Below, piece after piece: positions 8,032 through 54,084 of a DNA stretch of 64,000 nt. Position 1 is the first letter of the stretch, and each line of letters starts with the position of its first letter. The notes below the pieces were generated by a model. The model did no database searches. It was not told the origin of the DNA and saw only the letters and a list, made by a program, of their open reading frames with translations. The translations under genes and the position numbers were made by a program. Source of the stretch: Candidatus Hopanoidivoransaceae bacterium (lineage in GTDB: Bacteria; Actinomycetota; Acidimicrobiia; Acidimicrobiales; Hopanoidiivorantaceae); the NCBI GenBank assembly GCA_965204495.1, contig OZ241989.1, positions 1,184,312 through 1,248,311 of the forward strand. Reading direction: 5' to 3'.

Positions 8032-8817
8032 TCATGTGTCTGATTTGGTTGCTTTGATGATTTCCAAGAACGCTTTGCCTTCCAGCAACAGGGCATTGCT
8101 GATTTCTGCGTGTCGCCAAGCCATAGCAGTTCGTTTCACTGCTACGGCAGAGTGCATGTTCTTCTCAGCGATGGCTGTTGCGGCTGCGATGGCATCTTCC
8201 AGAAATGTCTCGGACACTTTGAACACCAGACCCATCTCTCTGGCTTCCTGAGCCCCTACCCATTCGGAGCTCAGCAGCAGCCACATGGCGTTCTGCCATC
8301 CGAGCAGCTGCGGCAGCAGCCAAGTGGATGCCGCCTCCGCCCCCACTCCCAGAGAGGTGAAGGGACATTTGAAGCGCGCCTGAGGCGAAGCGAATGCGAG
8401 GTCGGCGAACCCCAGCATGGTAGTTCCCAGCCCCACGGCTGCCCCGTTCACCGCCATCACCAGCGGTTTAGGGAAGCACTGCAGGGCTTGCAGCAGCTTC
8501 CAAGAATCGCCAGCTTCAGCATTGCCGGTTGCCTCGTCGCTTGCCTCGCTGCCTGCTTTATCGCTTGCCTCGCTGCTTGATGCCTCGTCTGGCAGCCCGC
8601 CCGTCAATGATGCCAGTTCTTTGAGGTCTATCCCCGCGCTGAAAGCTTTGCCCTCTCCTGTCAGCACCACTGCGCCTACGCTGCTGTCCTCGGCGGCGTC
8701 GCCAAGAGCGGCGTTCACCTCGTTGCGCAAGGCGTGATTAAAAGCGTTGCTGGCTTCGGGGCGACAAAATATCAGCACCTTCACCCGCCCTTTGGTCTGT
8801 GTCTTCAGCAAGCTCAT
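8032..8817 (-). CDS. Enoyl-CoA hydratase/isomerase (crotonase) family protein
   Basis: The track ORF is 8032..8835. The internal ATG at 8817 is preferred because AGGAG lies 6 nt upstream. Crotonase-type sequence VKVLIFCRPEASNAFN...VVLTGEGKAFSAGIDLKEL. It contains an acidic Ser/Ala-rich insert. Confidence 0.8.
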   Translation of the reverse strand: MSLLKTQTKGRVKVLIFCRPEASNAFNHALRNEVNAALGDAAEDSSVGAVVLTGEGKAFSAGIDLKELASLTGGLPDEASSSEASDKAGSEASDEATGNAEAGDSWKLLQALQCFPKPLVMAVNGAAVGLGTTMLGFADLAFASPQARFKCPFTSLGVGAEAASTWLLPQLLGWQNAMWLLLSSEWVGAQEAREMGLVFKVSETFLEDAIAAATAIAEKNMHSAVAVKRTAMAWRHAEISNALLLEGKAFLEIIKATKSDT

Positions 8818-8876
8818 GGGTTCTCCTGTCTGCATCGTTTCTGCTGGGATGTGCGCCGCGCACCGTTCTGCCTAAT

Positions 8877-8985
8877 CGCAAGTTTAACTCGGGAGTGTGA
8901 GAGCATCAGCACAGCCAGGCAGAACCGAACTCTCACCGCCCGAACTAGCGCAAGTTTAACTCGGGAGTGTGAGAGCATCAGCACA
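8877..8985. repeat. Perfect 37-nt direct repeat flanking a 35-nt unrelated segment (72-nt period)
   Basis: CGCAAGTTTAACTCGGGAGTGTGAGAGCATCAGCACA occurs at 8877-8913 and 8949-8985. The intervening 8914-8948 is GCCAGGCAGAACCGAACTCTCACCGCCCGAACTAG. Confidence 0.9.
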
Positions 8986-9017
8986 AGCACTGCTTCGGGT
9001 GGCTAGTATCGCAAGGA

Positions 9018-9953
9018 ATGGAGACTTCCAGCACCGCCGCTCTCGCTTCGCAGAATTCTGGCTCGCTAGCTCTGGAAGTTGAAGACATCTCGGTTGTGTA
9101 TCAACGCTCCATCAAAGCCCTGCAGGGCGTGAGCCTCAAGGTGCCGGAGGGCGAGGTCGTGGCGATTTTGGGCGCCAACGGCGCAGGCAAGACTACCTTG
9201 CTCCGCACCATCAGCGGACTGCTGGGCTTTCACGGCGGGGCTGTTGCTTCGGGGTCGTATCGCCTGTGGGGGCGACCAGCCGAAAAGCTAGCCCCGCAGA
9301 CGATAGTGAGGCGGGGCTTGGCACAGGTAATGGAAGGCAGGCGCATCTTGGCGCAGCTTACAGTGGAAGAAAACCTTGACTTGGGCGCCATCTCGGTGAC
9401 TAAGAAAGAAGTCCGAGAGGCTAAGCCTCCAATCGTGGAAGAAAACCTTGACCCAGGCGCCATCTCGGTGCGCAGCCGCCGCGATACTGCCGACCGCAAG
9501 CACCCTCGGCTGTGGCCGATCAATTTGCTGCGTGAGAGCGTGCGCAGCCGCCGCGACACTGCCGCCCGCAAGCACAGCTTGTTCGAGCAGTTTCCACAGC
9601 TGAGCGACCGCCGGCATTCGGTGGCGGGCTATCTCTCTGGCGGGGAGCAGCAGATGCTCGCTATCGCCAGAGCGTTGATGAGCGATCCGCGCTTCATCAT
9701 TTTGGACGAGCCTTCGCTCGGCTTGGCCCCGATAATCGCCCATCAGATCGCCGACATCATCTCTGAGATAGCCGCCGGCGGCACGACGGTGCTGCTGGTG
9801 GAGCAGAACGCGGCTATGGCCCTTGCGCTGTGCCGCTATGCCTATGTGTTCCAGACGGGCAAGGTTGCGAAGGAGGGCACGGCTGAAGAGCTGCTGGACG
9901 ACCCATACATGCAAGAGCTTTATCTGGGGCTTGCCGGGGCAGACGCAGCATGA
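9018..9953 (+). CDS. livF: Branched-chain amino acid ABC transporter ATP-binding protein (LivF type) with two 24-aa insertions
   Basis: Walker A GANGAGKTTLL, signature LSGGEQQMLAIARAL, Walker B FIILDEPSLGLAP. Its stop overlaps the next gene's start (ATGA). Confidence 0.85.
   Translation: METSSTAALASQNSGSLALEVEDISVVYQRSIKALQGVSLKVPEGEVVAILGANGAGKTTLLRTISGLLGFHGGAVASGSYRLWGRPAEKLAPQTIVRRGLAQVMEGRRILAQLTVEENLDLGAISVTKKEVREAKPPIVEENLDPGAISVRSRRDTADRKHPRLWPINLLRESVRSRRDTAARKHSLFEQFPQLSDRRHSVAGYLSGGEQQMLAIARALMSDPRFIILDEPSLGLAPIIAHQIADIISEIAAGGTTVLLVEQNAAMALALCRYAYVFQTGKVAKEGTAEELLDDPYMQELYLGLAGADAA
9363..9575 (+). repeat. Two adjacent units of 36-nt duplication plus 36-nt insert inside livF
   Basis: A1 9363-9398 and A2 9435-9470 are 33/36 identical. 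B1 9468-9503 and B2 9540-9575 are 34/36 identical. The inserts 9399-9434 and 9504-9539 are unrelated to the flanks. Confidence 0.9.
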
Positions 9954-10834
9954 CTGAAGCAACTGCTGTCAAAGATTCGGCGTCTGCTGCGGGCCAATCG
10001 CAATCTGCTGCCAGCAGATCTGATGCTGAACTTCGCGGGGCAGAACTCAGCGAGGCAGAACCGCGCGGAGCAGAACTTCGCATAGAAAATGTGAGCTTCG
10101 GAGTGGGCGGCATCTCTATCTTGGAAGATGTCAGCCTCACGGTGCGGCCCGGCGAGCTGATGGGAATCATCGGGCCGAACGGAGCGGGCAAGTCTTCGCT
10201 GTTCAACTGCATCAGCGGCATATATGTGCCGACCGTCGGGCGCATCGCGTTGGATGGGCAGCCGCTCACAGGGCTGCGACCTGTGGCAGTCGCTCGCCGA
10301 GGCGTTGCCCGCACATTCCAAAATCTCGCGCTTTTTGACAACCTGAATGTCGCCGACAATCTCATGCTGGGCCGCCACCGTCTTATGCGCACGGGTTTCG
10401 CAACGGGTGCAGTGTGGTTCGGGCGGGCACGGCGGGAGGAAGCGATCCATCGCCAGGCTTGTGCTGAGCTTGTGGAACTGCTCGGCTTGGGAGCATCAGC
10501 GCATCTGCCTGTGGGGCTGCTGCCGTACGGGGCGCAGAAGCGAGTGGAGCTAGGGCGAGCTTTGGCGTCTTCTCCCGATGTGCTGCTGCTGGACGAGCCA
10601 GTGGCGGGGATGAACACGGAAGAGACCGAGCAGATGTCGGCGATCCTGCGAAACATCCACCAGCAGCTGGACATCACGATAGTGCTAGTGGAACACGATG
10701 TGCACATGGTGGTGGGCCTGGCCGAGCGCATCTGCGCGATCAACTTCGGCCAAGTGGTGACAGTGGACGAGCCGCAAGCCGTGGTGTCGCACCCGACGGT
10801 CGTGGAAGCCTATTTAGGGTCGGAGTGGTCGTAA
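9950..10834 (+). CDS. livG: Branched-chain amino acid ABC transporter ATP-binding protein (LivG type)
   Basis: Walker A GPNGAGKSSLFN, Walker B LLLDEPVAGMN. LivG-like C-terminus HPTVVEAYLG. Confidence 0.85.
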   Translation: MTEATAVKDSASAAGQSQSAASRSDAELRGAELSEAEPRGAELRIENVSFGVGGISILEDVSLTVRPGELMGIIGPNGAGKSSLFNCISGIYVPTVGRIALDGQPLTGLRPVAVARRGVARTFQNLALFDNLNVADNLMLGRHRLMRTGFATGAVWFGRARREEAIHRQACAELVELLGLGASAHLPVGLLPYGAQKRVELGRALASSPDVLLLDEPVAGMNTEETEQMSAILRNIHQQLDITIVLVEHDVHMVVGLAERICAINFGQVVTVDEPQAVVSHPTVVEAYLGSEWS

Positions 10835-13080: not shown

Positions 13081-13911
13081 TCAATTTGTGGCTGTCTCTG
13101 AAATTTGTACTGCTGATGGCCTGCCCAGTGTGCCATCCCAGATGTAAGCGATGAAACGACCTGAAGCGGAAAGTGTGTATTGCGTGTTTTCTTCTCTAGT
13201 TATGGTGATATTTATTGGATTGCAGATAACCGCAATGGCTGAAAAGTCTCCATGCACTAGTACATTTTCAGGCAAGTGTTGGTTTAGAATGGGCAAACCG
13301 ACATAATCCAGCTTTTCTCGCAATTTTGCGGCAGTTTTCGGATGGCACATCAAAAGCATATTGCTTGAAGTTGTGTTGTCTGTTGCTAGGTGTTCAAGAT
13401 TCAGTACTCTTTCATAGGAAGCATATTGGTTCCAAAATTTTTCAGTCAGTTCTTTGTTGCATCTTCTGGCATACAGTGGCAGCAGTCTGTTGAAAACCGT
13501 GTGTTCCGTCATAGTAGCCATTGTGTGGTCAGAGAACGGAACGCTGTCGGGTCGTTTCCAAGGTGTGGCCTGTAACCCTATACTTAGTTCAGCGGCTACT
13601 GTTGCTTCTCTGAATTGAATATCTGGAATGGGCAGTCCATGATAAAGATGCTCGCGAGCATCAGATATGACGGGCTGGCGGAACCCTGGCTGCTTCAATT
13701 CGCCTTCTAAATCTTTGACGCAGAAAGCTGATACTCTCGCCCAGAGAGGAGCCTCTTTCCTCATTCGATGCCGCACGCGAGACAGTGTTTTTGGATTGCA
13801 ATCCAAAGACATGAATGTTTTTGTAGACGGCTGACTGTCTTTTGGAGCAAACAGGTGTCGTCCTGTCCACTCTAGGGTATAAGACACAAAGGGGATCTCC
13901 GTTGATGTCAT
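13081..13911 (-). CDS. Hypothetical protein (276 aa), translationally coupled partner of the upstream AAA+ ATPase
   Basis: Its ATG overlaps the ATPase stop (ATGA at 13908-13911), with AAGGAG just upstream. AT-richer than the flanks. I recognise no motif. Confidence 0.6.
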   Translation of the reverse strand: MTSTEIPFVSYTLEWTGRHLFAPKDSQPSTKTFMSLDCNPKTLSRVRHRMRKEAPLWARVSAFCVKDLEGELKQPGFRQPVISDAREHLYHGLPIPDIQFREATVAAELSIGLQATPWKRPDSVPFSDHTMATMTEHTVFNRLLPLYARRCNKELTEKFWNQYASYERVLNLEHLATDNTTSSNMLLMCHPKTAAKLREKLDYVGLPILNQHLPENVLVHGDFSAIAVICNPINITITREENTQYTLSASGRFIAYIWDGTLGRPSAVQISETATN

Positions 13912-15395
13912 GTGCTTACTCCTTGTTGCAGCAGATAATTTTGCCTGACTTCCATTGCCAGCATAAAATGGCTTAAGGGCACGGACTTGATTTCGCTATG
14001 GTGATCAACGGGCGCATCGGGAGTTACCACATAAGTATTCCCCGCCAACTGGTTGTATCCGCTTTTTGACAGCAGTTTTTTTACTCCCTGCAGTTTGCGC
14101 ATTTTATTTGTATAGCTGCTGCCGACCTCTATTGCCAAAGGGGTGCCGCCCCGTTCTTCTTCCAAAACGAAATCTATCTCGCAGCCTTTGTCACGCAGAT
14201 GGGAAAGCTTAGCTCTGCCGAGCGTAAGTTTCACAAGTCCGTTCAAAGAAGCGGCGACCATGTTCTCAGCAGACCATCCTCGTTCGCTGTCGCGCATCTG
14301 TTCTGGAGTTCTAAAGCTCAAAGCTGCCGGAACAGAGTTGTCATAGAAAAAAACTTTTTTCTTTCGCTTCGGGCCTGAATAATTTGGCAGTAAGAACAGC
14401 AGCATTGCATCATCAAGTGCAGCAAAATATCTGTCTAGCGTGGTTTCTGCCATGCTGATATCTGGGTTTTTCGCCCATTCTTTTCTGACAACTTCCCGTC
14501 CAGGATGCTCTGCTGCTAGACGCAATATAGCAGAAGCTTTAATCGGGTTGGATATTTTAGAGTACTCTTCGATGTCCCGTTGAAGTATTTGGGTGATAAT
14601 CTGTCTGATGTGTCCGTGCCTTTCAACCATGAACTCTGCCTTTTCTCCATCATTCATCATTGGGCGAGGATACAAATTTTCTGGACACCCTCCTGTAGAT
14701 GCTAGATCCCAAAAATATTCCTGCAGAAGTTTGTCATTAAAGTCTGGAGCAATATGCTTAATTATTTCCCTCAACGGCTTGTCAGCAATTTGAAAAAAAT
14801 CTGGAAACGGCAGCGAACTGCGCACAAGATTTGCGGCTTCTTGCATCTGAGATGGAAGCAAATAATATTCAGATGCTCTGCCAGCCCAGCTTTCTATCAT
14901 TCCCCTGTTCAGTGCTGATGAAGAGCCTGATGTGCATACTATTCTGAACGGATACAGGGCTGGTTCATCATATGCCCGTTTCAGCGTTTTGTTCCACCCT
15001 CCTGAATACACTATTTCGTCCAGCAGAAGAAAACAAGGTTCTTTTTCTGAGGCGCCAGTGATAGATTTGATTCCCTCCAGAAGTTCGTGCAGTCTAATGC
15101 CTGTAAAAACATCGTCATCCAGAGACAAAAAGACTAGTTTTTCAGGTTGGCACCTTTGTTCTGTGACTGCTCGTTTGGCTAGATGCTTAAGGACTGTGGT
15201 CTTGCCTACCCTTCTGGGCCCCAGAATGACTTTGTGGCAGGCTCTTTGAGATATTGGCGTGGTGGTGATTTCTCGCCACAGCATCTGCGCTAGGGTCCGT
15301 TCTTCGCATGTATTCGCTTGGCTGTGAAAGCGGCCTGCGTCTGCCATCCAAGGGCTGTTCGCTTGGATGATGCGTCTAAGAAGTTCGATGTCCAT
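13908..15395 (-). CDS. AAA+ ATPase of the COG1373 type (AAA_14 plus DUF4143-like C-terminal region)
   Basis: Walker A GPRRVGKTT and Walker B LLLDEIVY. The track start 15413 is TTG. ATG 15395 (MDIELLRR) is preferred because TGCTATAAT ends 6 nt upstream, implying a leaderless transcript. Confidence 0.75.
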   Translation of the reverse strand: MDIELLRRIIQANSPWMADAGRFHSQANTCEERTLAQMLWREITTTPISQRACHKVILGPRRVGKTTVLKHLAKRAVTEQRCQPEKLVFLSLDDDVFTGIRLHELLEGIKSITGASEKEPCFLLLDEIVYSGGWNKTLKRAYDEPALYPFRIVCTSGSSSALNRGMIESWAGRASEYYLLPSQMQEAANLVRSSLPFPDFFQIADKPLREIIKHIAPDFNDKLLQEYFWDLASTGGCPENLYPRPMMNDGEKAEFMVERHGHIRQIITQILQRDIEEYSKISNPIKASAILRLAAEHPGREVVRKEWAKNPDISMAETTLDRYFAALDDAMLLFLLPNYSGPKRKKKVFFYDNSVPAALSFRTPEQMRDSERGWSAENMVAASLNGLVKLTLGRAKLSHLRDKGCEIDFVLEEERGGTPLAIEVGSSYTNKMRKLQGVKKLLSKSGYNQLAGNTYVVTPDAPVDHHSEIKSVPLSHFMLAMEVRQNYLLQQGVST

Positions 15396-15401
15396 GTGTC
15401 T

Positions 15402-15410
15402 ATTATAGCA
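15402..15410 (-). promoter_or_regulatory. Extended -10 TGCTATAAT of the ATPase cassette (leaderless start)
   Basis: The reverse complement of 15402-15410 is TGCTATAAT, 6 nt before ATG 15395. The palindrome CTATATCTT-N4-AAGATATAG lies at ~15432-15453 upstream. Confidence 0.55.
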
Positions 15411-15551
15411 CAAATTGGCAAAATGTGGTATTTAAATGCTATATCTTCTGCAAAGATATAGTATCAAGGGTGATATTTTGACAAAAGCTAGTCTTCATCC
15501 TCATGGCGAAGCCGAATTATGCGTTGCTTGGGCTTAGGCCGTTCTGGGATT

Positions 15552-28895: not shown

Positions 28896-30167
28896 TCAGC
28901 CGCCCTCGGGCGGGATGTTGTGGGTTGCGATGTAGTCGGCGAATAGGTTGGCGGCTTCTTCGGGGGTGTAGCCGAAGTCGGTCAGGGTGTAGGAGTGGCG
29001 GCCGTGCTTGCCTTGGGGGTTGTCGTCTAGCCAGGTTTGCATGGCTCGGCGCGTTTCGTCTGTCAATTTCCAGCCGAGCCATTCGTATATTTGCTCGGCG
29101 GTTCGCATCGGGTTTTGCATCATGTCGGCGTAGAGGATGTTTAGGAAGCGATCGGGGCGGGCGGCTTGGGCTTCTGCCATTCGGCCGACTATCATCTGCC
29201 AGACTTCCAGCCAGCGGGTGCGGATGTAGGATGCCCAGTCGTGGTCGCTGGTGTATCCGGTGAAGGTGGTGATGAGGTTGAGGACGGAACCGAATGAGGT
29301 AGCTGGGTCGCGGTGGGTGAGGATGATGCGGGCATCGGGGTAGGCGGCGAAGACTTCGGGCAGGGCGATGCTGTGGTGGGGCGACTTCAGCATCCAGCGG
29401 CCGGGGGCTTCGCTTTGGAGCACCTGCAGGGCGATTTTGTGGTAGCTGTAGCCATCGTGCTGGGGCTGGCTGGGATACCATTCGCCGTAGCTGGGGAGAT
29501 TCCAAAGTGTTTCGTAGAGCATGGATCGGCAGGCTTGGGCTAGCAGGGTGACGCATTCTGTGGGGCCGTTGGGGGCTTCCCAGTGGATGGTTTTCATCTC
29601 GGGGCGGGCTTCGGAGAGGTATTCCTGATTTTGCTCCATTGCTTGGATGCGGGGGTCGGCGTGGAAGGTTTCGGTGCGGGGTGGCGGCATCGGGTTGGCG
29701 GCTTCCCAGCCCATGAGCGAGCGAGTGGCTGGGTCTTGATCCAGCAGGTAGCTGAGCAGGGTTGTGCCCGTGCGACCGTGGCCGGTGATGAAGACTGGGG
29801 AGACGACCGGCGAGGCGAGAATGTCGGGATGGCGGCGTGCCCAGTCCAGCACTAAAAGGCGGTTGCGGAGGTAGCTGACTAGCTGCATCTCCAGCATGAA
29901 TTCGCCTGTCGGATTGAGACGCGATTCTGTTGTGGCGGAGTGGAGGAGGGTGTCTAGGGCTTCTTGCCAGGGGGCGTGGGATGGGGGCGGTTTGGGCGCG
30001 CTGGTTGGGGGAGTGCTGTCGGGGGGCGGGCTGGTTGGTTGGGTGTTGGTTGGGGGCGGGCTGTCTGGAAGCGCGTTGGCTGGAAGCGAGCTGTCTGGCA
30101 GGTCAAAGTCGGTTAGACCTGCTTGTTCGGTGGCTTGCGAAATGAGTGATTCGGCTGTTAATGGCAT
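28896..30167 (-). CDS. Sulfotransferase-family protein
   Basis: PAPS-binding-type loop FITGHGRTGTTLLSYLL. The N-terminus carries Pro/Ser/Thr-rich micro-repeats. Confidence 0.7.
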   Translation of the reverse strand: MPLTAESLISQATEQAGLTDFDLPDSSLPANALPDSPPPTNTQPTSPPPDSTPPTSAPKPPPSHAPWQEALDTLLHSATTESRLNPTGEFMLEMQLVSYLRNRLLVLDWARRHPDILASPVVSPVFITGHGRTGTTLLSYLLDQDPATRSLMGWEAANPMPPPRTETFHADPRIQAMEQNQEYLSEARPEMKTIHWEAPNGPTECVTLLAQACRSMLYETLWNLPSYGEWYPSQPQHDGYSYHKIALQVLQSEAPGRWMLKSPHHSIALPEVFAAYPDARIILTHRDPATSFGSVLNLITTFTGYTSDHDWASYIRTRWLEVWQMIVGRMAEAQAARPDRFLNILYADMMQNPMRTAEQIYEWLGWKLTDETRRAMQTWLDDNPQGKHGRHSYTLTDFGYTPEEAANLFADYIATHNIPPEGG

Positions 30168-36004: not shown

Positions 36005-37819
36005 ATGACATCAAATGCAGCAGATTCAATGTCTGAGCCGGCAGTGTCTGAGCCGGCTGTGCCGGATTCACTGGCAGTGTCGGACTCACTGTCAGTAGTG
36101 GCGTCGGAGACCGCAATGTCGCCGTCGGAAACCGCTGTCTCATTCGCAGACGAGCTCGACCCGCCCGAACTGGTGCCGGCCAGAATGCTCACGCAGTTTC
36201 TCTACTGCTCAAGGCTGTTCTATCTGGAGTGGGTGAATCAGCAATGGGACGACAATGCCCACACCGCTCAAGGCGAATATGTCCATCGGGCTGTGGACAG
36301 GATAGGCGGTGCCGCGCCGGCAGCAGACGATGACAATCCGTTTTTGGAGGCGAGGTCTCTGAAGCTGTCGTCTGAGAAGCTCGGTCTGGTGGCTGTGGTC
36401 GACTTGGTGGAAGGCAAAGGCGGCGAAGTTCATCCTGTGGATTACAAGAAAGCCAAACTGCCCGGCGATTTGGCATTGCAAACCTGGGAGTCGCACAGGG
36501 CGCAGCTTTGCGTGGCAGGGTTGCTGCTGCGAGAGGCAGGCTATGTGTGCACCAGCGGCAGCATCTACTATGCCGGCAGCAAGCGCAGGGTGGAGGTGCA
36601 TTTTGACGACGAGCTGGTAGACCAGACGATGTCGGCTCTGGAGGAACTGCGCGAAACGGCCACTCTGCCCGAAGCCCCGCCTCCGTTGGTGGACAGCCCC
36701 AAATGCCCCGACTGCTCGCTGGTGGGGATATGCCTGCCTGATGAAGTCAATCTTTTGGCAGAGATTTCCAAGCATCCGCCTCGCCGCTTGGTGCCTCGCG
36801 ATCCTCAGTCTCGCCCTGTTTATGTGGCTGAGCAGGGGGCGAGAGTGGGCAAGGCCAAAGGTCGGCTGCAAATCAAAAAAGACAGGGAAGTCATCCAAGA
36901 GGTGCGCTTGCTGGATGTCTCGCAGCTTTGTCTCTATGGCAATGTGCAGGTGTCTTCGCAGTGCGTTCGCGAGCTTTTGGGCAGGGATGTGCCGATCTGC
37001 TGGTTCAGCTTCGGCGGATGGTTCGCTGGCATGGCAACGGGTTTGCCTGCCAAGCATGTGGAGCTGCGGCGGCGACAGGTTGGCCGTTCTAGCGTGGGCA
37101 GAATGGACATCTCCAAAGCCATCGTGCGCTCCAAGATTTTGAACTCCCGCACTTTGCTGCGCAGAAATTTCAAAGGGGGCGATGAAGCTGTGCACCAGCG
37201 GACGCTGGCATCGCTCAAATATCTTGGGAAGGTGGCGGGCAGGGCTTCTACGGTCGCTGAGCTCATGGGCGTTGAGGGCGCGGCCGCACGGGATTATTTC
37301 CAAGCTTTCAACTCTATGCTCCGTGAAGAGCACGGCTTGCCCGGGCGTCCGTTTTCGTTTGAGGGGCGCAATCGCCGTCCGCCGTTGGATCCGATCAACT
37401 GTCTTTTGTCTTATTGCTATTCGCTGCTGACTAAGGAGTTGACGGTCGTGGCTCATGCTGTGGGGTTTGACCCTTACATCGGCTTTTTCCATAAGCCTCG
37501 GTTCGGGCGGCCTGCTCTGGCTTTGGATTTGGCCGAGGAGTTTCGCCCGTTGGTGGCGGATTCTGTTGTGATCACTTTGATCAACAATGACGAAATCAGA
37601 GCTTCGGATTTCGTGGTTCGCTCGGAAGGGGTTGCGCTCACCGATGCAGGCAAGAAGAAAGTCTTGGGGGCTTACGAGCGGCGTTTGGATGTGGAAATCA
37701 CCCATCCCGTGTTTGACTACAAGATCACATATCGCCGTGTTTTCGAGCTTCAAGCCCGTCTGCTGGCTGCCACGCTTTTGGACGAAGTGGCGGAATACAC
37801 GCCGTTTGCGACTCGGTGA
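36005..37819 (+). CDS. cas1: Cas4-Cas1 fusion protein (type I-G adaptation)
   Basis: N-terminal Cas4 features: LYCSRLFYLEW, DYKK, CPDCSLVGIC. The C-terminal ~330 aa is Cas1-like: VYVAEQGARVGKAKGRLQIKK...EGAAARDYF...NCLLSYCYSLL. Confidence 0.85.
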   Translation: MTSNAADSMSEPAVSEPAVPDSLAVSDSLSVVASETAMSPSETAVSFADELDPPELVPARMLTQFLYCSRLFYLEWVNQQWDDNAHTAQGEYVHRAVDRIGGAAPAADDDNPFLEARSLKLSSEKLGLVAVVDLVEGKGGEVHPVDYKKAKLPGDLALQTWESHRAQLCVAGLLLREAGYVCTSGSIYYAGSKRRVEVHFDDELVDQTMSALEELRETATLPEAPPPLVDSPKCPDCSLVGICLPDEVNLLAEISKHPPRRLVPRDPQSRPVYVAEQGARVGKAKGRLQIKKDREVIQEVRLLDVSQLCLYGNVQVSSQCVRELLGRDVPICWFSFGGWFAGMATGLPAKHVELRRRQVGRSSVGRMDISKAIVRSKILNSRTLLRRNFKGGDEAVHQRTLASLKYLGKVAGRASTVAELMGVEGAAARDYFQAFNSMLREEHGLPGRPFSFEGRNRRPPLDPINCLLSYCYSLLTKELTVVAHAVGFDPYIGFFHKPRFGRPALALDLAEEFRPLVADSVVITLINNDEIRASDFVVRSEGVALTDAGKKKVLGAYERRLDVEITHPVFDYKITYRRVFELQARLLAATLLDEVAEYTPFATR

Positions 37820-37944: not shown

Positions 37945-39204
37945 ATGTTGATGAAATTCGTTATTTGTAAATCACTTGCTGCAGGCATAGCAATCCTGTC
38001 TGCTCTGTCGCTTTTTGCGGCTGCTTGCGGAGGCGATGATGGCAATGGCGGAGACGCGGATGCCGTGTCTGGCAGTGTCTTGAAGCTCGGCTACATCCTG
38101 CCTCAAACCGGCAGCTTGGCTTATTTGACAGATGCTATGGAAAACGGTGCGGCATTGGCAGTGGAGGAAGTCAATCGGGAGGGTATTCAAGAGATAGAGA
38201 TGGTAGCCGGCGACTCTGGCACCAATGCCGATGTAGCCAACAACACGGCCGACAGCCATATTGCCGAGGGCGTGCAGGGCATTGTCGGTGCGGGGGCATC
38301 GGCTGTTTCATTGGCAATCATCGACAAAATCACCGGCGTGGGGCTTCCGATGATCTCGCCGTCTAACACCTCTCCAGCTTTCACCGCCTATGACGACAGC
38401 GAGCTTTATTTCCGCACAATCGCTTCGGATGTGCTGCAAAGCAGGGTGATCGCCGACCTTATCGCCGAGGACGGCGCACGCCGAGTGGCCATCATGTATC
38501 GTGCCGATGCCTACGGAAAGGCTTTGGCTGACGCTTCCGAGCAAGGTCTTATCGCCAACGGCGTGGAATCCGCAGGCAAGTTCGCTTTGGATCCCGAAGG
38601 CAGCACCTTCACATCTGAGGTGCAGGAGGTTGCGGCATCGGGGGCCGATGCTGTGATTTTGATTGCGTTTCGCGAAGGCGGGCGGATCATCGCCGAGATG
38701 ATTGAGGCTGAAATCGGGCCAGGCGACATCGCTCTGTATGTGACGGCTGGTTTGGCTGTAGCCGATCTATGGGAGTTGGTCAATCCAGAAGATCGTTCGG
38801 CGGTGCAGGGAATACGAGGGACGCGCACCGGCGAGAGCGAGTCGGCTGAGCGGACTTTCAGAGATCGCTTTGCGGAATTCGCGCCTGGCGTGGATGATGC
38901 TTATGCTCCCGAAGCCTACGATGCGGTGGTGATCTATGCCTTGGCTGCTTTGGCGGCGGGAAGCAATCAGGCATCGGATTTTGCGTCTGAAATCAATGGC
39001 GTGACTCGTGGGGGCACAAAGTGCTCGCTGTATGCAGATTGCGCCGAGCTGGTGATGGCGGGTGAAGACATTGATTACGAAGGCGCGGCTGGTTCGCTGG
39101 ATTTCGTGGATGCCGGCGAGCCGAGCGTAGCGACTTTTGACATTTTGGAGTTTGATGCCGAGGGTGAAATCGTGGTGCTTTCGTCTAGGACGCTTCGGGG
39201 TTAG
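37945..39204 (+). CDS. ABC transporter substrate-binding lipoprotein (Liv/PBP1 type) located between cas4/cas1 and cas2
   Basis: Lipobox LFAAAC. LKLGYILPQTGSLAYL...GIVGAGASAVSLAI resembles branched-chain amino acid binding proteins. Confidence 0.75.
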   Translation: MLMKFVICKSLAAGIAILSALSLFAAACGGDDGNGGDADAVSGSVLKLGYILPQTGSLAYLTDAMENGAALAVEEVNREGIQEIEMVAGDSGTNADVANNTADSHIAEGVQGIVGAGASAVSLAIIDKITGVGLPMISPSNTSPAFTAYDDSELYFRTIASDVLQSRVIADLIAEDGARRVAIMYRADAYGKALADASEQGLIANGVESAGKFALDPEGSTFTSEVQEVAASGADAVILIAFREGGRIIAEMIEAEIGPGDIALYVTAGLAVADLWELVNPEDRSAVQGIRGTRTGESESAERTFRDRFAEFAPGVDDAYAPEAYDAVVIYALAALAAGSNQASDFASEINGVTRGGTKCSLYADCAELVMAGEDIDYEGAAGSLDFVDAGEPSVATFDILEFDAEGEIVVLSSRTLRG

Positions 39205-39389: not shown

Positions 39390-39686
39390 ATGAGTCGGAA
39401 TACCTATCTGGTCGCCTACGACATTTGCGGCGATGAAAAGCGTTTGCGGAAAATCCACCAATGCATGTGCGGGTATGGCTACTCTCTGCAATACTCGGTG
39501 TTCTTGTGCTCGCTGGATCAGGTTGAGCTGATCGACCTGAAGATGGATGTGAGCGAAATCATGAACCACAGAGACGACAGCGTAATGATCGTGTCACTAG
39601 GCCCCTCAGAAACGGCGGTGGAAAGTCATTTTGAATTCATGGGAGTCACCCCACCGAAATTTGACGAGGGAGCGGTCATCGTCTAG
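39390..39686 (+). CDS. cas2: Cas2
   Basis: 98 aa, YLVAYDICGDEKRLRKIHQCMCGYGYSLQYSVFLC. GAGGGA RBS. Immediately upstream of the leader and array. Confidence 0.85.
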   Translation: MSRNTYLVAYDICGDEKRLRKIHQCMCGYGYSLQYSVFLCSLDQVELIDLKMDVSEIMNHRDDSVMIVSLGPSETAVESHFEFMGVTPPKFDEGAVIV

Positions 39687-39968
39687 TTGGTTGCGCTGGT
39701 GGCGGTTGTCCGAGCATCTACAGCAGACAAAAAGATTCGCAGTCGATTCTGAAATAGCAAAGATATTTCTTGAGGGGGATGGGGGGTTCGAGGGGTTCCT
39801 GCGAGAGGTCGTGTGGCAACACCATCCCCAGCCACCTCTCGTGCCCTGCTACAATAACCCCAAAGAGGGGCATCCGAACCTTGGCAATCTATTCCCCAAA
39901 CAAAAAATCCCCACCCACTCGCAATCGGCCAATTCTCCCCAAGCCAATTGCGCCCAACAAAGTGAGTG
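39687..39968 (+). promoter_or_regulatory. CRISPR leader with candidate extended -10 TGCTACAAT at 39847-39855
   Basis: Non-coding stretch between cas2 and the first repeat. TGCTACAAT lies ~113 nt before repeat 1. The ORFs listed here are repeat or leader artefacts. Confidence 0.55.
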
Positions 39969-42363
39969 CTATCGGGGGGCAGTCCGCCCCCCCTTCATTG
40001 AAGCTGAGAAACTACATGATGAGCTTCGGGGAGGCTTATCTATCGGGGGGCAGTCCGCCCCCCCTTCATTGAAGCAGACCGCCTGATTACTTGCATCGTC
40101 ATTCTGAACCCCCTATCGGGGGGCAGTCCGCCCCCCCTTCATTGAAGCTCGCCGTGGTCTGTCGTCTCTACATGGACTGGCACTCTATCGGGGGGCAGTC
40201 CGCCCCCCCTTCATTGAAGCGCTTGACAATATGCGAACGCTGGAGGCGCACATCCTATCGGGGGGCAGTCCGCCCCCCCTTCATTGAAGCCACTCGGTTG
40301 AGAGATGAGACTGGTGCGGAGGCTTTCTATCGGGGGGCAGTCCGCCCCCCCTTCATTGAAGCTCAGCCATACAAACAGCCTAGCAGATAAGTTCCCTCTA
40401 TCGGGGGGCAGTCCGCCCCCCCTTCATTGAAGCCGCATGTCTTGGGCTGGTCGTTGATGACCCTGATTGCTATCGGGGGGCAGTCCGCCCCCCCTTCATT
40501 GAAGCAGGAACACGCCGAGCGCAGTAGCAGCGATGAAGCCCCTATCGGGGGGCAGTCCGCCCCCCCTTCATTGAAGCGAAGAATATGAGATGAGGTCTCT
40601 GCTGGATGGCTCCCTATCGGGGGGCAGTCCGCCCCCCCTTCATTGAAGCCGCTCTTGCGCTGTGCGCATCAGCGAGTTGAGCGTGCTATCGGGGGGCAGT
40701 CCGCCCCCCCTTCATTGAAGCAGCGGCATCTACACCACCAGCCAAGCCAAACCCTGCTATCGGGGGGCAGTCCGCCCCCCCTTCATTGAAGCTAGCTGGC
40801 AGCTATCAGCCTGCCCGCAACCTTCTGCTATCGGGGGGCAGTCCGCCCCCCCTTCATTGAAGCCTGGCAGAGCAAGGAGTTGCCAGACATGCATGCTGCT
40901 ATCGGGGGGCAGTCCGCCCCCCCTTCATTGAAGCGGCAGCGATGGCTGACGGCATCGCCTGCCTCGGCAGCTATCGGGGGGCAGTCCGCCCCCCCTTCAT
41001 TGAAGCTCGTGGATTGCTGATCCTATTGTTGCTAGCACGAGCTATCGGGGGGCAGTCCGCCCCCCCTTCATTGAAGCATTCAGTGTCGGCACAGAAAAAG
41101 TCGCAAGTTCGGCTATCGGGGGGCAGTCCGCCCCCCCTTCATTGAAGCTCTGGTGAAGAAGCCAGCGATACCACCATCTTCAACTATCGGGGGGCAGTCC
41201 GCCCCCCCTTCATTGAAGCCGCAGCGTCTTCTTCACTTGAGCGTCCGATAGGTATCTATCGGGGGGCAGTCCGCCCCCCCTTCATTGAAGCGGCTGGGGA
41301 CACCTCCACAGCGCAACAGCCTCTATCTATCGGGGGGCAGTCCGCCCCCCCTTCATTGAAGCATCAGGACACCTTTGCCATTGCCTCCATCGCCGTCTAT
41401 CGGGGGGCAGTCCGCCCCCCCTTCATTGAAGCAAGACCCTGAGAGTTTTGAATCTGAGAGGTTTTTACTATCGGGGGGCAGTCCGCCCCCCCTTCATTGA
41501 AGCTTATCAGGCAGGCTTCACGGGGCAGCTAGCCCCGTCTATCGGGGGGCAGTCCGCCCCCCCTTCATTGAAGCAGAGTGAAACAAGCTAGTTCCATTTT
41601 GGCACGAAAACTATCGGGGGGCAGTCCGCCCCCCCTTCATTGAAGCGGACTTGTTAAATGCGGATGATGAGCTTGTGGCGGCCTATCGGGGGGCAGTCCG
41701 CCCCCCCTTCATTGAAGCTGGCGGTCTCTCATCCCGCCGCAAGCCATAAACGAACTATCGGGGGGCAGTCCGCCCCCCCTTCATTGAAGTCTGCGCCTTT
41801 GTAGCCTGTGCCTGCCACGACAGACCTATCGGGGGGCAGTCCGCCCCCCCTTCATTGAAGTGATATTGTGTCATTCTCAGTCTCGTGTTTGTGGTGGCTA
41901 TCGGGGGGCAGTCCGCCCCCCCTTCATTGAAGTTCTACCAGTTCTGAGGTTATTTTGGTGACGGCTGACTATCGGGGGGCAGTCCGCCCCCCCTTCATTG
42001 AAGTTTGGCAATACTTTGAGGCTCTGCCCGCTCAGGTGGACTATCGGGGGGCAGTCCGCCCCCCCTTCATTGAAGTGCCTATCTGGGTAGCGTTCGTATG
42101 AGTCACCTGCGCCTATCGGGGGGCAGTCCGCCCCCCCTTCATTGAAGTGCAGTCCACGCGATCACTCCAATAGTGATTCCTATGCTATCGGGGGGCAGTC
42201 CGCCCCCCCTTCATTGAAGTGCTTCACACGCACTAGCAGCCTACGCCCGACTCACCTATCGGGGGGCAGTCCGCCCCCCCTTCATTGAAGTTATTCCATC
42301 TCCACCTGATACAAAAGCCCAGAGCGCCTATCGGGGGGCAGTCCGCCCCCCCTTCATTGAAGC
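39969..42363 (+). CRISPR. CRISPR array: 34 repeats of 36 nt and 33 spacers of 34-37 nt
   Basis: The repeat is CTATCGGGGGGCAGTCCGCCCCCCCTTCATTGAAGC. It contains a 7-bp stem GGGGGGC/GCCCCCC with a 5-nt loop, followed by an 11-nt tail ending ATTGAAGC. I located every repeat start by hand from 39969 to 42328. Repeats 26-33 end in T instead of C. Confidence 0.97.
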
Positions 42364-42391: not shown

Positions 42392-44062
42392 TTAGAAATC
42401 TAGGTCTGGGGCGGGTTCTAGTTGTCCTGCTGACAGGGGGGTTTCTGCTTCGCTTTCTGTGAGGAACACCACGTCGCCGTCTATGAATTGTGGTCGTAGG
42501 GGGTCTTTTCTGTGATACAAATTGCAGGGCTCTAGCACTCTGTAATTTTTGCCCTTGGTCACACCGCCTCTCAAAATCATCTCTTGGACTGATTGAGCGT
42601 TCACAGCCAGCAAGAAAACAGCCAATGGCAATTCACCGATGCCTAGAGGGTGATGTTCGGGGCGAACCACAGGGCTGCGTGGTGTCACCATGTATGAGTT
42701 TCCCCTGAATTTTTCTTTCTCTTCTACAAGTTTTTTTAATCCCTTCAGATGATGATCCTTTGAGTTTCCTACTTCAAACGCCAAGGGATCCTCTGTCTCT
42801 CCGCCGAAAATGAAATCTACCTCATATGTTTCTCTTAGGCGCCAATATTCCAGAGTCATCCAACTGTTCTCTGCCAGCTCTTTTAATGCCGCTCCCGCCG
42901 CATTTTCCAGCACATGGCCTTTCTTTGGGAGATCTTCCAGCCCTGATGTCCCCATTCTCCTAACGGCCGAAGGAACGGCTGGGTCAAAGAAGCAGTATTT
43001 CTGGTTGCCAGCCTTCCGCATCGGTGCGTCGGAATAGGCGTCTAGTCGGAAGAGAATGTTCGCATTCTCCAAATGGGAGAGATATGTGCTTGTTGTTTTT
43101 CCCTGAGCTTCGCCCAGCTGTTTGCCAATCTTGGCAACTGTGGTCTGCTTGCCGAGCAGACCCGCGACAGAATGCATTACGGCCTCAAGAGTTTTCCGAT
43201 CTCTGACATCATGGAAGGCAACTATGTCTTTGTCAACCGCCCTGCCTACTACCTCTTTGAGGTATCCATGATCCCGTCTGACCGCTGCTCTGAGGCTCGG
43301 GTTATGCGTGGAATGGTCATATCCAGTGATGCACACGGGGTATCCGCCTGTGATGAGGTATCTGTCCAGAGCAGTCGCTACCTGCTCGGGAACGGGCGAG
43401 ACCTGCGGGATTGATTGAAGCCGTGCTCGCAAAGATGGATATCCTGTTCTGCACCATTTTGGAATGATGCTGGCATCGCCGAAAACAAATTCGCACCATT
43501 CCATGAAATTGCAAGCCATCAAGCGATATTCTGCCCAGCGGTCTGGGCCGCTTTCTGGTTTGCGCTTGTCGTTATTGGCAAGGATCATCCCAGAACTGGA
43601 AGACGCTAAAACTCTGATGGGTCTGTTTTGAGCGAGAAGATTTTTTAGCCACAGGTCCCAGTCGTCGCTTGCTCCTATCTCGTCCAAGAACAGAAAAATC
43701 GGCTCATCGATGCTGGCATCGGGGCACAGCAGCAACAAGGCATCTGCTATCGCCCCTAGATTTTCCATCTGAAGCTCCGGGTGATCCAGTTCCACGAAAA
43801 AGATGCGCTCTCTGGGTATTCCCTTGTCTAGCAAGCTGTCAATAGACTGCCAAAGCAGCGTGGTTTTGCCAGACCTGCGGGGGCCCAGCACAAGATGGTA
43901 GCATCGCGGGTCGTCTCGGATGAGGGTGTCGGGCAGAACTCGCATCATGTGCCTGTGCTTGGGCAGGGATTTCTCCGTCAGCTCGGACGAGTCTGTTTTC
44001 CACCCGTTCTGATCCTCGAGTATTTCTTGGAAGCGGGGTATGTCTATGTATTGAAATGCCAT
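42392..44062 (-). CDS. AAA+ ATPase of the COG1373 type (AAA_14 plus DUF4143-like), second copy
   Basis: Walker A GPRRSGKTT and Walker B FLFLDEIGASDDW. The track start is 44098; ATG 44062 (MAFQYIDI) has GGAGG 7 nt upstream. AT-richer than the array and the cas4/1 region. Confidence 0.75.
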   Translation of the reverse strand: MAFQYIDIPRFQEILEDQNGWKTDSSELTEKSLPKHRHMMRVLPDTLIRDDPRCYHLVLGPRRSGKTTLLWQSIDSLLDKGIPRERIFFVELDHPELQMENLGAIADALLLLCPDASIDEPIFLFLDEIGASDDWDLWLKNLLAQNRPIRVLASSSSGMILANNDKRKPESGPDRWAEYRLMACNFMEWCEFVFGDASIIPKWCRTGYPSLRARLQSIPQVSPVPEQVATALDRYLITGGYPVCITGYDHSTHNPSLRAAVRRDHGYLKEVVGRAVDKDIVAFHDVRDRKTLEAVMHSVAGLLGKQTTVAKIGKQLGEAQGKTTSTYLSHLENANILFRLDAYSDAPMRKAGNQKYCFFDPAVPSAVRRMGTSGLEDLPKKGHVLENAAGAALKELAENSWMTLEYWRLRETYEVDFIFGGETEDPLAFEVGNSKDHHLKGLKKLVEEKEKFRGNSYMVTPRSPVVRPEHHPLGIGELPLAVFLLAVNAQSVQEMILRGGVTKGKNYRVLEPCNLYHRKDPLRPQFIDGDVVFLTESEAETPLSAGQLEPAPDLDF

Positions 44063-44411
44063 CGTTCTACCTCCGTTATCTGAATTATGTATCTGCATTA
44101 TACATGTTTTTCAGTTATATGACAACCTATTTTGTTGATGATTTTGCCATATATTGGAGATTGATAGCATTTTCTAGGATTTTAAGGCTTATAGAACTGG
44201 AAATCTTGGAATATCTAGAATATAGATATCCAAATTCCAAGAAGCTAGATTTGTCCATCACAGACGGAATTAGCTTGCCTAATTCGCTTCTGCTATGTTT
44301 GTGCCGGCGCAGGCGAGTGAAGTGGTCGGCGTGTCAGTGATTGTGCCGTATGTGACCTGCCGAGAGCACGGCATCGATTATCTCTGCGGTTAGTGCTTTC
44401 ACCGCGCCGGC

Positions 44412-44447
44412 TTTCGGGGGGCGGTCCGCCTACCTTAATTTGAAGCT
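44412..44447 (+). repeat. Degenerate CRISPR repeat (28/36 identical to the array repeat)
   Basis: CTTTCGGGGGGCGGTCCGCCTACCTTAATTTGAAGC versus CTATCGGGGGGCAGTCCGCCCCCCCTTCATTGAAGC. A weaker repeat-like stretch begins 72 nt later (~44484-44523). Confidence 0.75.
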
Positions 44448-44863: not shown

Positions 44864-44991
44864 GCGGTGATGGTGATGTGTCGCAACCCACCTTGTTTCT
44901 CGAGCGGGCCGCAGGTGCAGTCGGCTACTGGTGCTGCGCGGTGATGGCGATGTGTCGCTACCTACCCTTCGGGGGGGGGGGCGATTTGAAG
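44864..44991 (+). repeat. ~32-nt direct repeat pair (period 74) ending in a G11 tract plus GATTTGAAGT (CRISPR-repeat-like 3' end)
   Basis: GCGGTGATGGTGATGTGTCGCAACCCACCTT at 44864 and GCGGTGATGGCGATGTGTCGCTACCTACCCTT at 44938, followed by C-G11-CGATTTGAAGT. CTTAAATTGAAGC occurs at ~45058-45070. Confidence 0.6.
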
Positions 44992-45090
44992 TGACAAGGC
45001 GGGATTAGTTTGGATTAATTCATTCTAGTTAATTTTGGGAGGGTTCGTCAAGCTTGTCTTAAATTGAAGCCAGATGGTTTGCGCTGAGAA

Positions 45091-45198
45091 GTTGCTATAT
45101 TCTATCAAAATCTGGTGTGGGGCAAATTACAAGTCATCGCCGTTGTCGGCCGAAATAAGATGTTGCTATATTCTATCAAAATTCGGTATGGCGCATAT
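45091..45198 (+). repeat. AT-rich 37-nt direct repeat pair with 71-nt period (two-repeat mini-array-like)
   Basis: GTTGCTATATTCTATCAAAATCTGGTGTGGGGCAAAT at 45091 and GTTGCTATATTCTATCAAAATTCGGTATGGCGCATAT at 45162. They are 32/37 identical and the first 21 nt are perfect. Confidence 0.7.
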
Positions 45199-47362: not shown

Positions 47363-48294
47363 CTAATTGCTATTGGCTGTCCGCCAGATTATTTGGGGTG
47401 GACTGAAGGTGCCATAGCCACCTTGATCTGAGCGCAGTATCTGCGATTGCAGAATTCGGGATATTCCCCATGATGGATAGAAGTGGCTACGATTTTCTGG
47501 TGTTAAGCTGGTGGCTTGTGCGAGGAGGGCAATCACGGTTCCAAATCCTGCGGGGCGAATCCAAAGAGGCCAAGTATATTTTCCCTGTTTCCAACCACCT
47601 GAGCAACCAAGTGTTAAGGTTCTCTTGCCGTCTTGCCTTGAAAATACTGGATGTCTGCTAAACCCTAAAATTGCTAGAGCTTCGGGACCAGGATTTGTGT
47701 ATTTGTCGGTAGTGGATGGGTTGGAGGCTGATAAGGCGTAAACACGGTCGTCAACTATATCCCACATTAATGATTCTTTTTTGCTTTGATATGGCCAAGG
47801 GCCAATAAGACCTTCGGTTATATCGTCTTCAGTTGCGGAAGTAAGAATTTCTTGTGCCATGCTAAGAAATTTTTGTTGGCCTGCTGTGAAGTAGAGATCG
47901 TTTGGTTTGGCTATATTATTGTTGTCATAGCTTCCTTCGGCTATCAATGCTGTGGCAAATTCGCTACCAATTTGTCCAACTGACGACATGAGGTATTCTC
48001 TAACCGTTTCATCAGAGAACTTGGCTTTTTCTTTTTCTGCTTTTGTCCCAAGCTTTGGAGCCAGAGCAGGGCTTTTTGCCCATTTGGGGAAGACTGCCAT
48101 TGCTTGATCTACTATTTTTTCCACTGGGTAAGCCTCGCTGACGATGGCATGGGGGATGACATCGTTTGACCACCAGAGCTTGGGTTGGTCGGGCTCGTCG
48201 GCGAAGAGGACTTGGACACCTAGGGCGGCAAAGAAGCCTAGGGGGTTGGTGCCGTCTAGTCCGGTCAGGTGAATGCCTTCGTATGCTTGGGTCA

Positions 48295-48295
<1 letters not shown>
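47363..48295 (-). CDS. Short Cas8u-family (Csb3/Csx17-like) putative large subunit
   Basis: The ATG at 48295 overlaps the cas3 TGA. The N-terminal LTGLDGTNPLGFFAALGVQVLFADE resembles the PLG..LKALGV..L motif I recall at Csx17/Cas8u N-termini. Last gene of the effector operon. Confidence 0.5.
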
Positions 48296-52777
<4,482 letters not shown>

Positions 52778-52780
52778 GGC

Positions 52781-54013
52781 TTACTCCGCTTCTGGCTTTT
52801 CGGTTTTGGCTGCTTTTCGGCTTTTCGCCAATAGCTCAATCAGCTTCGGGGAGGGTTCTAGCCGTATCTCGGATGTCTCCCAGCCGATGCCAGCCTTTTC
52901 CGCCTCCTCAGCAGCCCGCTTCAGAATGTCGGATGCGACCGATCTGTTGATGTCCACAACAGTGGGGGCTGAGCCATCCCGTGCTACAAGTTCCAAAGTT
53001 TGGGTTTCAGTCGGAATCAGAAGACATCTGGAGCGAAGGTCGTAGTCGTGCTCATATAGATAAGCGGCGGCTGCTACGCCGAGTGCTGCGATGGCGGTCT
53101 GAGCCGCCGCTTCTTTGGCGCGGTCGCGTCCTCCGAAACGAAGCTTCCTCAAGGCTGCTAGCGAAATCACAGTAGTTTGGACTGCCCCTGAGATGGTCAC
53201 GCCGCCCGACAGAGAATCTATAGAGGGTGCGATGTTGCCGTGGTTGATTTCTGAGGGTCTGCCTATGACTTTGGGCTTGCCTTTTTCTTTGGCAGCTTCG
53301 TCTTCGTTGACGGTCCAGACTTGGGCAGGGTCTGCATGCTCGTAGATGAGATCTTCGGCTGACAATTTTTCAATCGCGAGAGGATCCAGCCGGCTGCCTA
53401 CTTTCTTGCCGACCTGCACATCCAAGCCGATGATCTCTGAGACATAGGCTCGCTGGAATTTCGACCCCAACCCGCCCTTCGGCCCTGTGCTGTCCCAAAC
53501 TCCGAACAGCAGGGCTGTGGGCGAATACCGATATAGGGCGGTGGCGTCTCGTGGGGTGGCGTTGGTTATCTGCTGTCCGACATCAGACAGGCGGAACAGA
53601 GTGCCGTCCAGCAGGCTGTCGCGGAAGATGGCATCGGCTATCCTGTGCGGAGCTTCAAGGGCTGTGAGCTTGCCGATTTCGCTCAAGTCTTCCTCGTCGC
53701 TCTTGGCATCTGAAAAATCCACATATGGAACGGGAAACGCTAGATCGCCGTCCAGCCAGCCTTCCAGCAGGGCTTCTTCGGCTCGGTTGGCCTGAGACGC
53801 TACCGAGTCCAACAGCACGGTTTCCACTTCTTTGTCGTTGATTTGGCGCGTCTCCACAGCGTATTTGTGGTCGGCTCGGCCGTCAACGGCGTATGAGGGC
53901 GGAAACACCTTGTCTTCGGTTCCGCCAGCAGGTGCCAGCGACAGACGAGACCGCAAAGCTACGGCACCTCCCGCTGTGGCTTCTGAAAGCTGTTCAAAAG
54001 TGAGTTCGGTCAT
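52781..54013 (-). CDS. csb1: Csb1 (Cas7u, type I-G)
   Basis: The track start 54073 is TTG. ATG 54013 (MTELTFEQL) has AAGGAG 7 nt upstream. LAPAGGTEDKVFPPSYA...VLLDSVASQANRAEEAL matches my memory of Csb1. Confidence 0.8.
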   Translation of the reverse strand: MTELTFEQLSEATAGGAVALRSRLSLAPAGGTEDKVFPPSYAVDGRADHKYAVETRQINDKEVETVLLDSVASQANRAEEALLEGWLDGDLAFPVPYVDFSDAKSDEEDLSEIGKLTALEAPHRIADAIFRDSLLDGTLFRLSDVGQQITNATPRDATALYRYSPTALLFGVWDSTGPKGGLGSKFQRAYVSEIIGLDVQVGKKVGSRLDPLAIEKLSAEDLIYEHADPAQVWTVNEDEAAKEKGKPKVIGRPSEINHGNIAPSIDSLSGGVTISGAVQTTVISLAALRKLRFGGRDRAKEAAAQTAIAALGVAAAAYLYEHDYDLRSRCLLIPTETQTLELVARDGSAPTVVDINRSVASDILKRAAEEAEKAGIGWETSEIRLEPSPKLIELLAKSRKAAKTEKPEAE

Positions 54014-54084
54014 GATTTTCTCCTTGATGGCTTGTCTGTGTTTTGGGTGTTCTGCTGTTGGGTAGGGTGTCAAATCGCAATTGC

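Follow-up and report, generated by a model that had tools for sequence, protein, structure and literature searches.

The locus described here raises the question of how a housekeeping gene came to carry, within its reading frame, additions with the repeat and spacer dimensions of a CRISPR array located elsewhere in the same stretch of DNA. The gene is livF, coding for an ATP-binding cassette (ABC) ATPase in a 64-kb stretch of a Candidatus Hopanoidivoransaceae genome (the whole of this stretch is called the window), and its open reading frame (9018..9953, + strand) contains two pairs of direct repeats that each enclose unrelated DNA. A repeat finder returned precisely the two pairs that an earlier note on this DNA had described: in unit A, arms A1 (9363-9398) and A2 (9435-9470) are identical at 33 of 36 positions (92%) and flank a 36-nt insert (9399-9434) that encodes TKKEVREAKPPI, and in unit B, arms B1 (9468-9503) and B2 (9540-9575) are identical at 34 of 36 (94%) and flank a 36-nt insert (9504-9539) that encodes PRLWPINLLRES. 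Both pairs are spaced 72 nt start to start, and A2 overlaps B1 by the triplet GTG. These similarities are far beyond chance, as the pairs had E values of 1e-8 (A) and 3e-10 (B) when the region was searched against the window by BLAST. A third unit, C, had escaped the earlier note. It occupies the 180-nt gap 5′ of livF, where two 37-nt arms (8877-8913 and 8949-8985) are 100% identical, lie 72 nt apart and bracket an unrelated, spacer-like intergenic insert of 35 nt (8914-8948). None of the three interiors has a second match in the window at ≤3 mismatches. The earlier note's proposal implied an excess of this geometry over other lengths, and a scan of offsets from 10 to 400 across the window found one: the long non-tandem duplications outside the array fall at 71-72 nt, the sole exception being a family of protein-domain repeats with ~280-310-nt spacing at 3.7-6.5 kb. 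The scan also gave a candidate unit D (45085-45197) in intergenic, low-GC DNA beside the cas genes, with arms of ~36-40 nt that are 31/36 identical and 71 nt apart; no empty allele of it was found, and it stays unconfirmed because the one relative found, L091, holds both arms.

Alleles in related strains show what these sites look like when they are unoccupied. A LivF protein search gave close relatives, 95-99% identical to the window's LivF outside the inserts, and the DNA of six relatives was aligned to the window. LivF occurs in three lengths: 311 aa with both inserts (P0001-5), 287 aa with the B insert only (P0006-13) and 263 aa without either (P0014-16 and all more distant homologues), the insert-free state being seen at the protein level in P0014-16 and P0019-29. 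Insert-free alleles are common, the P0014 cluster alone having 12 members. At the DNA level the window has A, B and C; L089, a 2.0-Mb contig, has A and B without C; L005 has B and C without A; and L004 has C only, the units segregating independently of one another. These contigs provide exact empty sites, in which one arm is present without the insert, for A in L005 and L004, for B in L004 and for C in L089. The A1 sequence is also single in L090, L003 and L001, B1 is single in L004, and the C arm is present as one copy in L090, L003 and L001 as it is in L089. Where present, the inserts are shared closely: that of B is identical in L005 and L089, that of C recurs in L004 and L005 with 1-2 substitutions, and that of A is confined to the window and L089/P0001-5. 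The inserts are restricted to this clade, distant LivF homologues lacking them, as the comparison of orthologues proposed in the earlier note would have it, with near-identical strains missing A alone or A and B together. Among the matches listed, scans of GTDB and JGI for further livF alleles returned only homologues of ≤58% identity, and the top LivF match was to a sponge metagenome-assembled genome; this match and named Cas4/1 homologues put the organism tentatively among uncultured Acidimicrobiia. Each of three flanking amino-acid haplotypes was seen with A and B, with B only and with no livF insert, and a single sample supplied two of the contigs that differ in insert state, L089 and L005. 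Given this mixing of haplotype and insert state, either the polymorphism is a recombining one or recombination between arms has removed units repeatedly. The C arms are identical in the window, whereas L004 and L005 (9860-9968) have 4 differences between theirs, a pattern that suggests gene conversion between the arms in the window's lineage.

The empty alleles also bear on two further claims of the earlier note. Its argument that the units are not simple tandem duplications stands, since the interiors are unlike the sequence that follows and the empty alleles lack the inserts. Its reconstruction of an ancestral LivF, made by deleting one arm and the insert from each unit, matches the natural insert-free alleles P0014-16 except at one residue, where L and P differ.

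A sister lineage (L090, L003, L001 and L002), whose LivF is ~81% identical to that of the window, shows units of the same geometry at the same spot with different DNA. L090 is free of inserts and provides the exact empty site for a unit, B′, that is present in L003, where a 37-nt arm beginning GTCGCC and ending CGTCTGCT is duplicated at a site displaced 7-8 nt from B around a 35-nt insert unrelated to that of B. In L001 and L002 the B′ unit is joined by a second one, B″; with three arms, two inserts and a 72-nt period in both units, livF there contains what is in form a two-spacer mini-array. We therefore count five events, C, B, A, B′ and B″, and these are independent. Their arms are 36, 36, 37, 37 and 38 nt long and their inserts 36, 36, 35, 35 and 34 nt, the sum always being 72; a match of one or two further bases at a duplication boundary is expected by chance. 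Four of the five lie in frame inside livF, and unit C is intergenic.

The dimensions of these units are those of the CRISPR-Cas system in the window. The array (39969..42363, + strand) consists of 34 repeats of 36 nt, CTATCGGGGGGCAGTCCGCCCCCCCTTCATTGAAG(C/T), with a 35-nt core in 34 copies, and of 33 spacers of 34 nt (2), 35 nt (14), 36 nt (16) or 37 nt (1), so that the period is 70-73 nt and mostly 71-72. The match drawn in the earlier note between arm and repeat length, and between insert length and the 34-37-nt spacer range, thus agrees with the array as measured. Its adaptation genes are intact: the presumed integrase is a Cas4/Cas1 fusion of 604 aa (36005..37819, + strand; Pfam Cas_Cas1 4.9e-87, Cas_Cas4 7.7e-15), and Cas2 (39390..39686, + strand) has 98 aa (Pfam CRISPR_Cas2 4.8e-17). 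The interference genes for Csb1/Cas7g, Csb2, Cas3g and a Cas3-extension protein (NCBIfam TIGR02570, TIGR02165, TIGR02621 and NF049934) occupy 47363..54073 on the minus strand, a Csx17/Cas8g gene was not identified within the window, and by these Pfam and NCBIfam matches the system is type I-G, formerly I-U. We placed the leader at 39687-39968 from the position of cas2 and from the repeat 3′ end, ATTGAAGC, which we take to be the handle. Two relatives have larger arrays, of 65 spacers with the same repeat in L008 (4030-8803) and of 81 spacers in L006 (13845-19717), and Cas4/1 proteins 97% and 94% identical to that of the window, respectively; the three arrays have no spacer in common, which, given such similar Cas4/1 proteins, fits ongoing adaptation and turnover. 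A more distant relative, L007, has a different 36-nt repeat and a period of 71-73 nt, as in the window. Members of the Cas4/1 cluster are found on contigs of 52,689 and 42,243 bp, sizes that match the livF contigs of L003 and L090; within the sister lineage, the CRISPR-Cas system is therefore very probably present in strains with and without inserts alike.

We regard it as highly probable that the units are off-target spacer integrations by the resident Cas4/1-Cas2, as the earlier note had proposed, and the empty sites, the geometry and the five events all support this. The integrase complex would attack the two strands 36 nt, or one repeat length, apart at a site outside the CRISPR array, a processed prespacer of ~35-36 nt would be joined in there, and gap repair would duplicate the 36 nt between the nicks. 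The expected product is arm-insert-arm with a period of ~72 nt, in other words a one-spacer 'neo-CRISPR'. Within livF only 72-nt products would persist, because they keep the frame and carry no stop codon, and the site of the inserts would be a loop in the helical subdomain of the ABC protein, one able to take 24 or 48 extra residues. The suggestion in the earlier note that survival in the gene depended on the 72-nt length is in line with all five periods being 72 nt, and since about half of the canonical acquisitions also have this period, such an in-frame filter is consistent with the data. Site B probably drew the integrase because, on its minus strand, it resembles the junction of leader and repeat together with the repeat's first 15 nt; later events may have occurred next to B (unit A) or, as with the second unit in L001, by renewed use of a new arm. 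Rather than working CRISPR loci, the units most probably represent neutral scars. That they form a functional array was rejected, the arms matching the repeat at ≤15 of 36 positions, with no BLAST homology between the leader and the livF region and no Rfam match in the window.

The resemblance at site B lies at the outer edge of arm B2, where the minus strand of 9558-9575 reads GTGCTTGCGGGCGGCAGT and agrees at 15 of 18 positions with the junction sequence GTG-CTATCGGGGGGCAGT. Outside the array, this junction 18-mer has 2 matches in the window at ≤3 mismatches against 0.07 expected. The other match (30013-30030, + strand) belongs to a stretch of 30-nt tandem repeats, 5′-terminal in a sulfotransferase gene, that contains no arm-insert-arm unit. 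When four empty sites were compared in both orientations with both junction types (16 tests), only the minus strand of B was significant (15/18, p ~2e-4, ~0.003 after correction). We rate the motif as suggestive only, because it was noticed before testing and is 3 nt out of register. In the orientation that it defines, L001 has its extra insert on the leader-proximal side, in keeping with canonical polarity.

Several observations weigh against off-target integration. The B motif does not coincide with the duplication boundary, from which it is offset by those 3 nt. Sites A, C and B′ have no resemblance to a leader-repeat junction in the same 16 tests, and the arms as wholes are unremarkable when compared with the CRISPR repeat (identity no higher than the 15/36 given above). 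With the motif setting the orientation, unit A falls to the trailer side of B, a non-canonical polarity. Three units lie within 700 bp of the 64-kb window and two more at the same spot in the sister lineage, and this clustering is explained only in part, since A, C and B′ lack the motif and A departs from canonical polarity. Finally, protospacers for the inserts were not found by BLAST against phage and plasmid sequences or by exact 28-mers in IMG/VR, so that a foreign origin and a protospacer adjacent motif (PAM) are unverified. Two canonical spacers used as controls in these searches likewise had no match, however, and the negative result is therefore uninformative.

Some of these observations also speak for a process unrelated to CRISPR, such as filler repair of staggered breaks, template switching or an unrecognised integrase, that would yield 36-nt duplications around 36-nt fillers. 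The missing protospacers and PAM and the lack of a repeat-like motif at most target sites are as this process would have them, and the clustering of events in one short region could mark a local fragile site. Such a process would nevertheless have to arrive five times, by chance, at both the repeat and the spacer length of the resident array. Its fillers, moreover, are not templated from nearby sequence: the five inserts have no match in the window, in ~120 kb of fetched related loci or in the canonical arrays of relatives, which rules out copying from neighbouring DNA, a source that the earlier note had said would count against its hypothesis. Nor does any other combination of arm and period occur in the window or among the inter-strain indels. 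Those indels, in the linker of the neighbouring enoyl-CoA hydratase (ECH) gene and at the N-termini of LivG, LivH and LivM, are low-complexity expansions lacking long duplications, for which reason we rejected them as integrase-type events. A transposon or miniature inverted-repeat transposable element (MITE) was rejected as well, each insert being unique and the 36-nt duplication as long as the insert; neither the A nor the B insert had a terminal pair in a search for inverted repeats over 9000-10000. We give a process unrelated to CRISPR a slim chance.

Whether the inserts do anything for LivF is a separate matter, and their selection as functional additions, for example as a variable surface loop under adaptive diversification, would be compatible with their having arrived by off-target integration. 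The gene (Pfam ABC_tran PF00005 at 7e-27) is open over 311 aa despite 2 × 72 nt of inserted DNA, and the motifs GANGAGKT (Walker A), LSGGEQQ (signature) and IILDEP (Walker B) are invariant across the protein alignment. A second ABC ATPase gene and two BPD_transp_2 permease genes follow on its 3′ side, as in a livFGHM-type operon. livF is under strong purifying selection in every comparison, the ratio of nonsynonymous to synonymous substitution rates (dN/dS) being 0.04-0.14 for insert-bearing and insert-free alleles alike. With dS among close strains at 0.13-0.17 and arm divergence reaching 5/36, neither A nor B is a very recent unit. This age, the purifying selection that persists with the inserts in place and the independent striking of the same loop in two lineages count in favor of adaptive additions. 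On the other side, in an AlphaFold2 model the core of LivF is confident and residues 126-176, which comprise the inserted material, make up a loop that connects two helices of the helical subdomain and has a predicted local distance difference test (pLDDT) score <50, which predicts disorder for the inserted residues. The two lineages have unrelated insert peptides, unit C lies between genes and many strains do without any insert. On this model the inserts look tolerated rather than functional, and selected additions have, in our estimate, a marginally slimmer chance of being the explanation.

Replication slippage, in which a 72-nt tandem duplication would later diverge beyond recognition in half of each copy, has in its favor a period divisible by three and a genome in which tandem repeats and low-complexity expansions are common, with 72-nt tandem leucine-rich repeat (LRR) genes in relatives, but it is hardly credible, and effectively refuted given the empty-site alignments, as the arms are 92-100% identical with interiors unlike the sequence 3′ of the second arm, the empty alleles show the insert to be extra sequence and not a diverged copy, and the fully identical C arms bracket 35 unrelated nt. 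The LRR genes share the 72-nt period as genuine tandem repeats. They encode giant proteins (to ~7,450 aa) just 5′ of the ECH-livF region in relatives (L004 1-8865, L089 1-8756, L005 553-8745 and L003 20485-20783), and their 24-residue repeats give a period that coincides with that of the CRISPR array. Between the LRR and ECH genes, intergenic repeats of ~56 nt that end in 9-10 G recur at 63-67-nt spacing (L004 8817-8911, L005 8693-8727).

Off-target integration by Cas4/1-Cas2, if it is indeed the source of the units, invites a further and rather doubtful idea, namely that livF is a natural hotspot of CRISPR array birth, where the junction mimic repeatedly recruits the integrase and new arms then serve polarised acquisitions, as in L001. 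Were this so, a CRISPR integrase that generates loop diversity in housekeeping proteins would be an unrecognised source of in-frame protein insertions, and a wild population would maintain that diversity in the form of a recombining polymorphism.

The surroundings of livF and of the array show other kinds of variation that we report as observations in their own right. Right behind its start codon, the N-terminus of LivG (window 9953-10070) is hypervariable, low-complexity coding sequence, with 0 extra nt in L004 and L001, 60 in L090, 72 in L003 and 114 in the window, L089 and L005, without any long flanking duplication. The ECH gene (8032..8835, − strand) has a low-complexity linker rich in Ser, Glu, Ala and Asp in mid-gene (window 8529-8590; L005 9367-9535) that differs by tens of codons among strains, the proteins ranging from 248 to 311 aa, and this looks like slippage of 12-, 48- and 90-nt repeats. 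Exact-sequence look-ups of the window's LivF and of a 478-aa protein returned no record. Between cas4/1 and cas2 lies a gene for a LivK-like binding protein (Peripla_BP_6; window 37945-39204), an unusual passenger in an adaptation operon that occupies the same place in L006 (11788-13221) and L008 (2028-3341). Within the array, the last eight spacer-bearing repeats (41755-42291) have C changed to T at the final base, and the terminal repeat (42328) again ends in C. Degenerate solitary copies of the repeat occur 2-2.6 kb past the array, at 44411-44446 (28/36) and ~44958-44993, in or beside a 43%-GC segment (~44.1-46.7 kb) that L008 lacks by gene order and the JGI contig L091 has. Two AAA_14/DUF4143 ATPase genes are found in low-GC islands; the one at 13908-15413 (13-15.5 kb) is replaced in relatives by an HTH_3 gene, and the one at 42392-44098 lies directly 3′ of the CRISPR array, in L008 as well.

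If the units arose as we propose, this locus preserves a natural series that runs from empty site to one unit to two units, together with a two-spacer mini-array that arose independently in a sister lineage. This would mean that the adaptation machinery damages its own chromosome in the wild and that the resulting scars can persist in frame in a constrained gene, and it would make the de novo birth of arrays plausible. With its 15/18 junction mimic, the livF allele free of inserts would also offer a substrate for study of how a Cas4/Cas1 fusion chooses its target and of the mechanism of its ruler.

In E. coli, off-target integration by the type I-E Cas1-Cas2 makes neo-CRISPR loci (Nivala, Shipman and Church 2018, Nat Microbiol; via PMC6698737, PMC11788318 and bioRxiv 10.1101/148544), and the preprint describes the earlier natural evidence for such integration as circumstantial and limited to two other species (10.1101/148544). 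The likeness is close: in both cases a spacer-sized insert lies between duplications of one repeat length at a site outside any CRISPR array, a new arm can be used again to start an array, and the target may loosely resemble the leader-repeat junction. The differences are that the livF events are natural, whereas those in E. coli were brought about by overexpression; that the system in the livF case belongs to type I-G, its ruler being 36 nt and its Cas1 fused to Cas4; that four of its five events are in frame in an intact, selected housekeeping gene; and that its units are polymorphic, with empty sites in wild strains. The Cas1-Cas2 of Pyrococcus furiosus likewise integrates off target in vitro at sites with repeat features (PMC6698737), and the livF locus shares with it the use of non-CRISPR DNA with short repeat features and a spacing of the two attacks set by repeat length. 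Unlike in that plasmid assay, only site B at livF has a repeat-like motif, the 15/18 match that is 3 nt out of register.

Off-target acquisition has also been proposed as one origin of isolated or orphan arrays (Shmakov et al. 2020, CRISPR J, via PMC13142298). The livF units would share this origin and represent its earliest stage, but their arms are ordinary coding or intergenic sequence unlike the resident repeat, and nothing about them suggests processing or immunity. Canonical type I-G adaptation (PMC10504553, PMC6547450) employs the same enzyme set as the window's Cas4/1-Cas2 and targets the leader-proximal repeat, whereas the window's events landed 30 kb away in livF; in plasmid assays, only 60-70% of the spacer-side integrations by type I-G Cas4/1 took place at the correct site (PMC10504553). 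The livF locus belongs to the known kind of off-target integration, of which it is a natural, type I-G, in-frame and recurrent case with empty sites.

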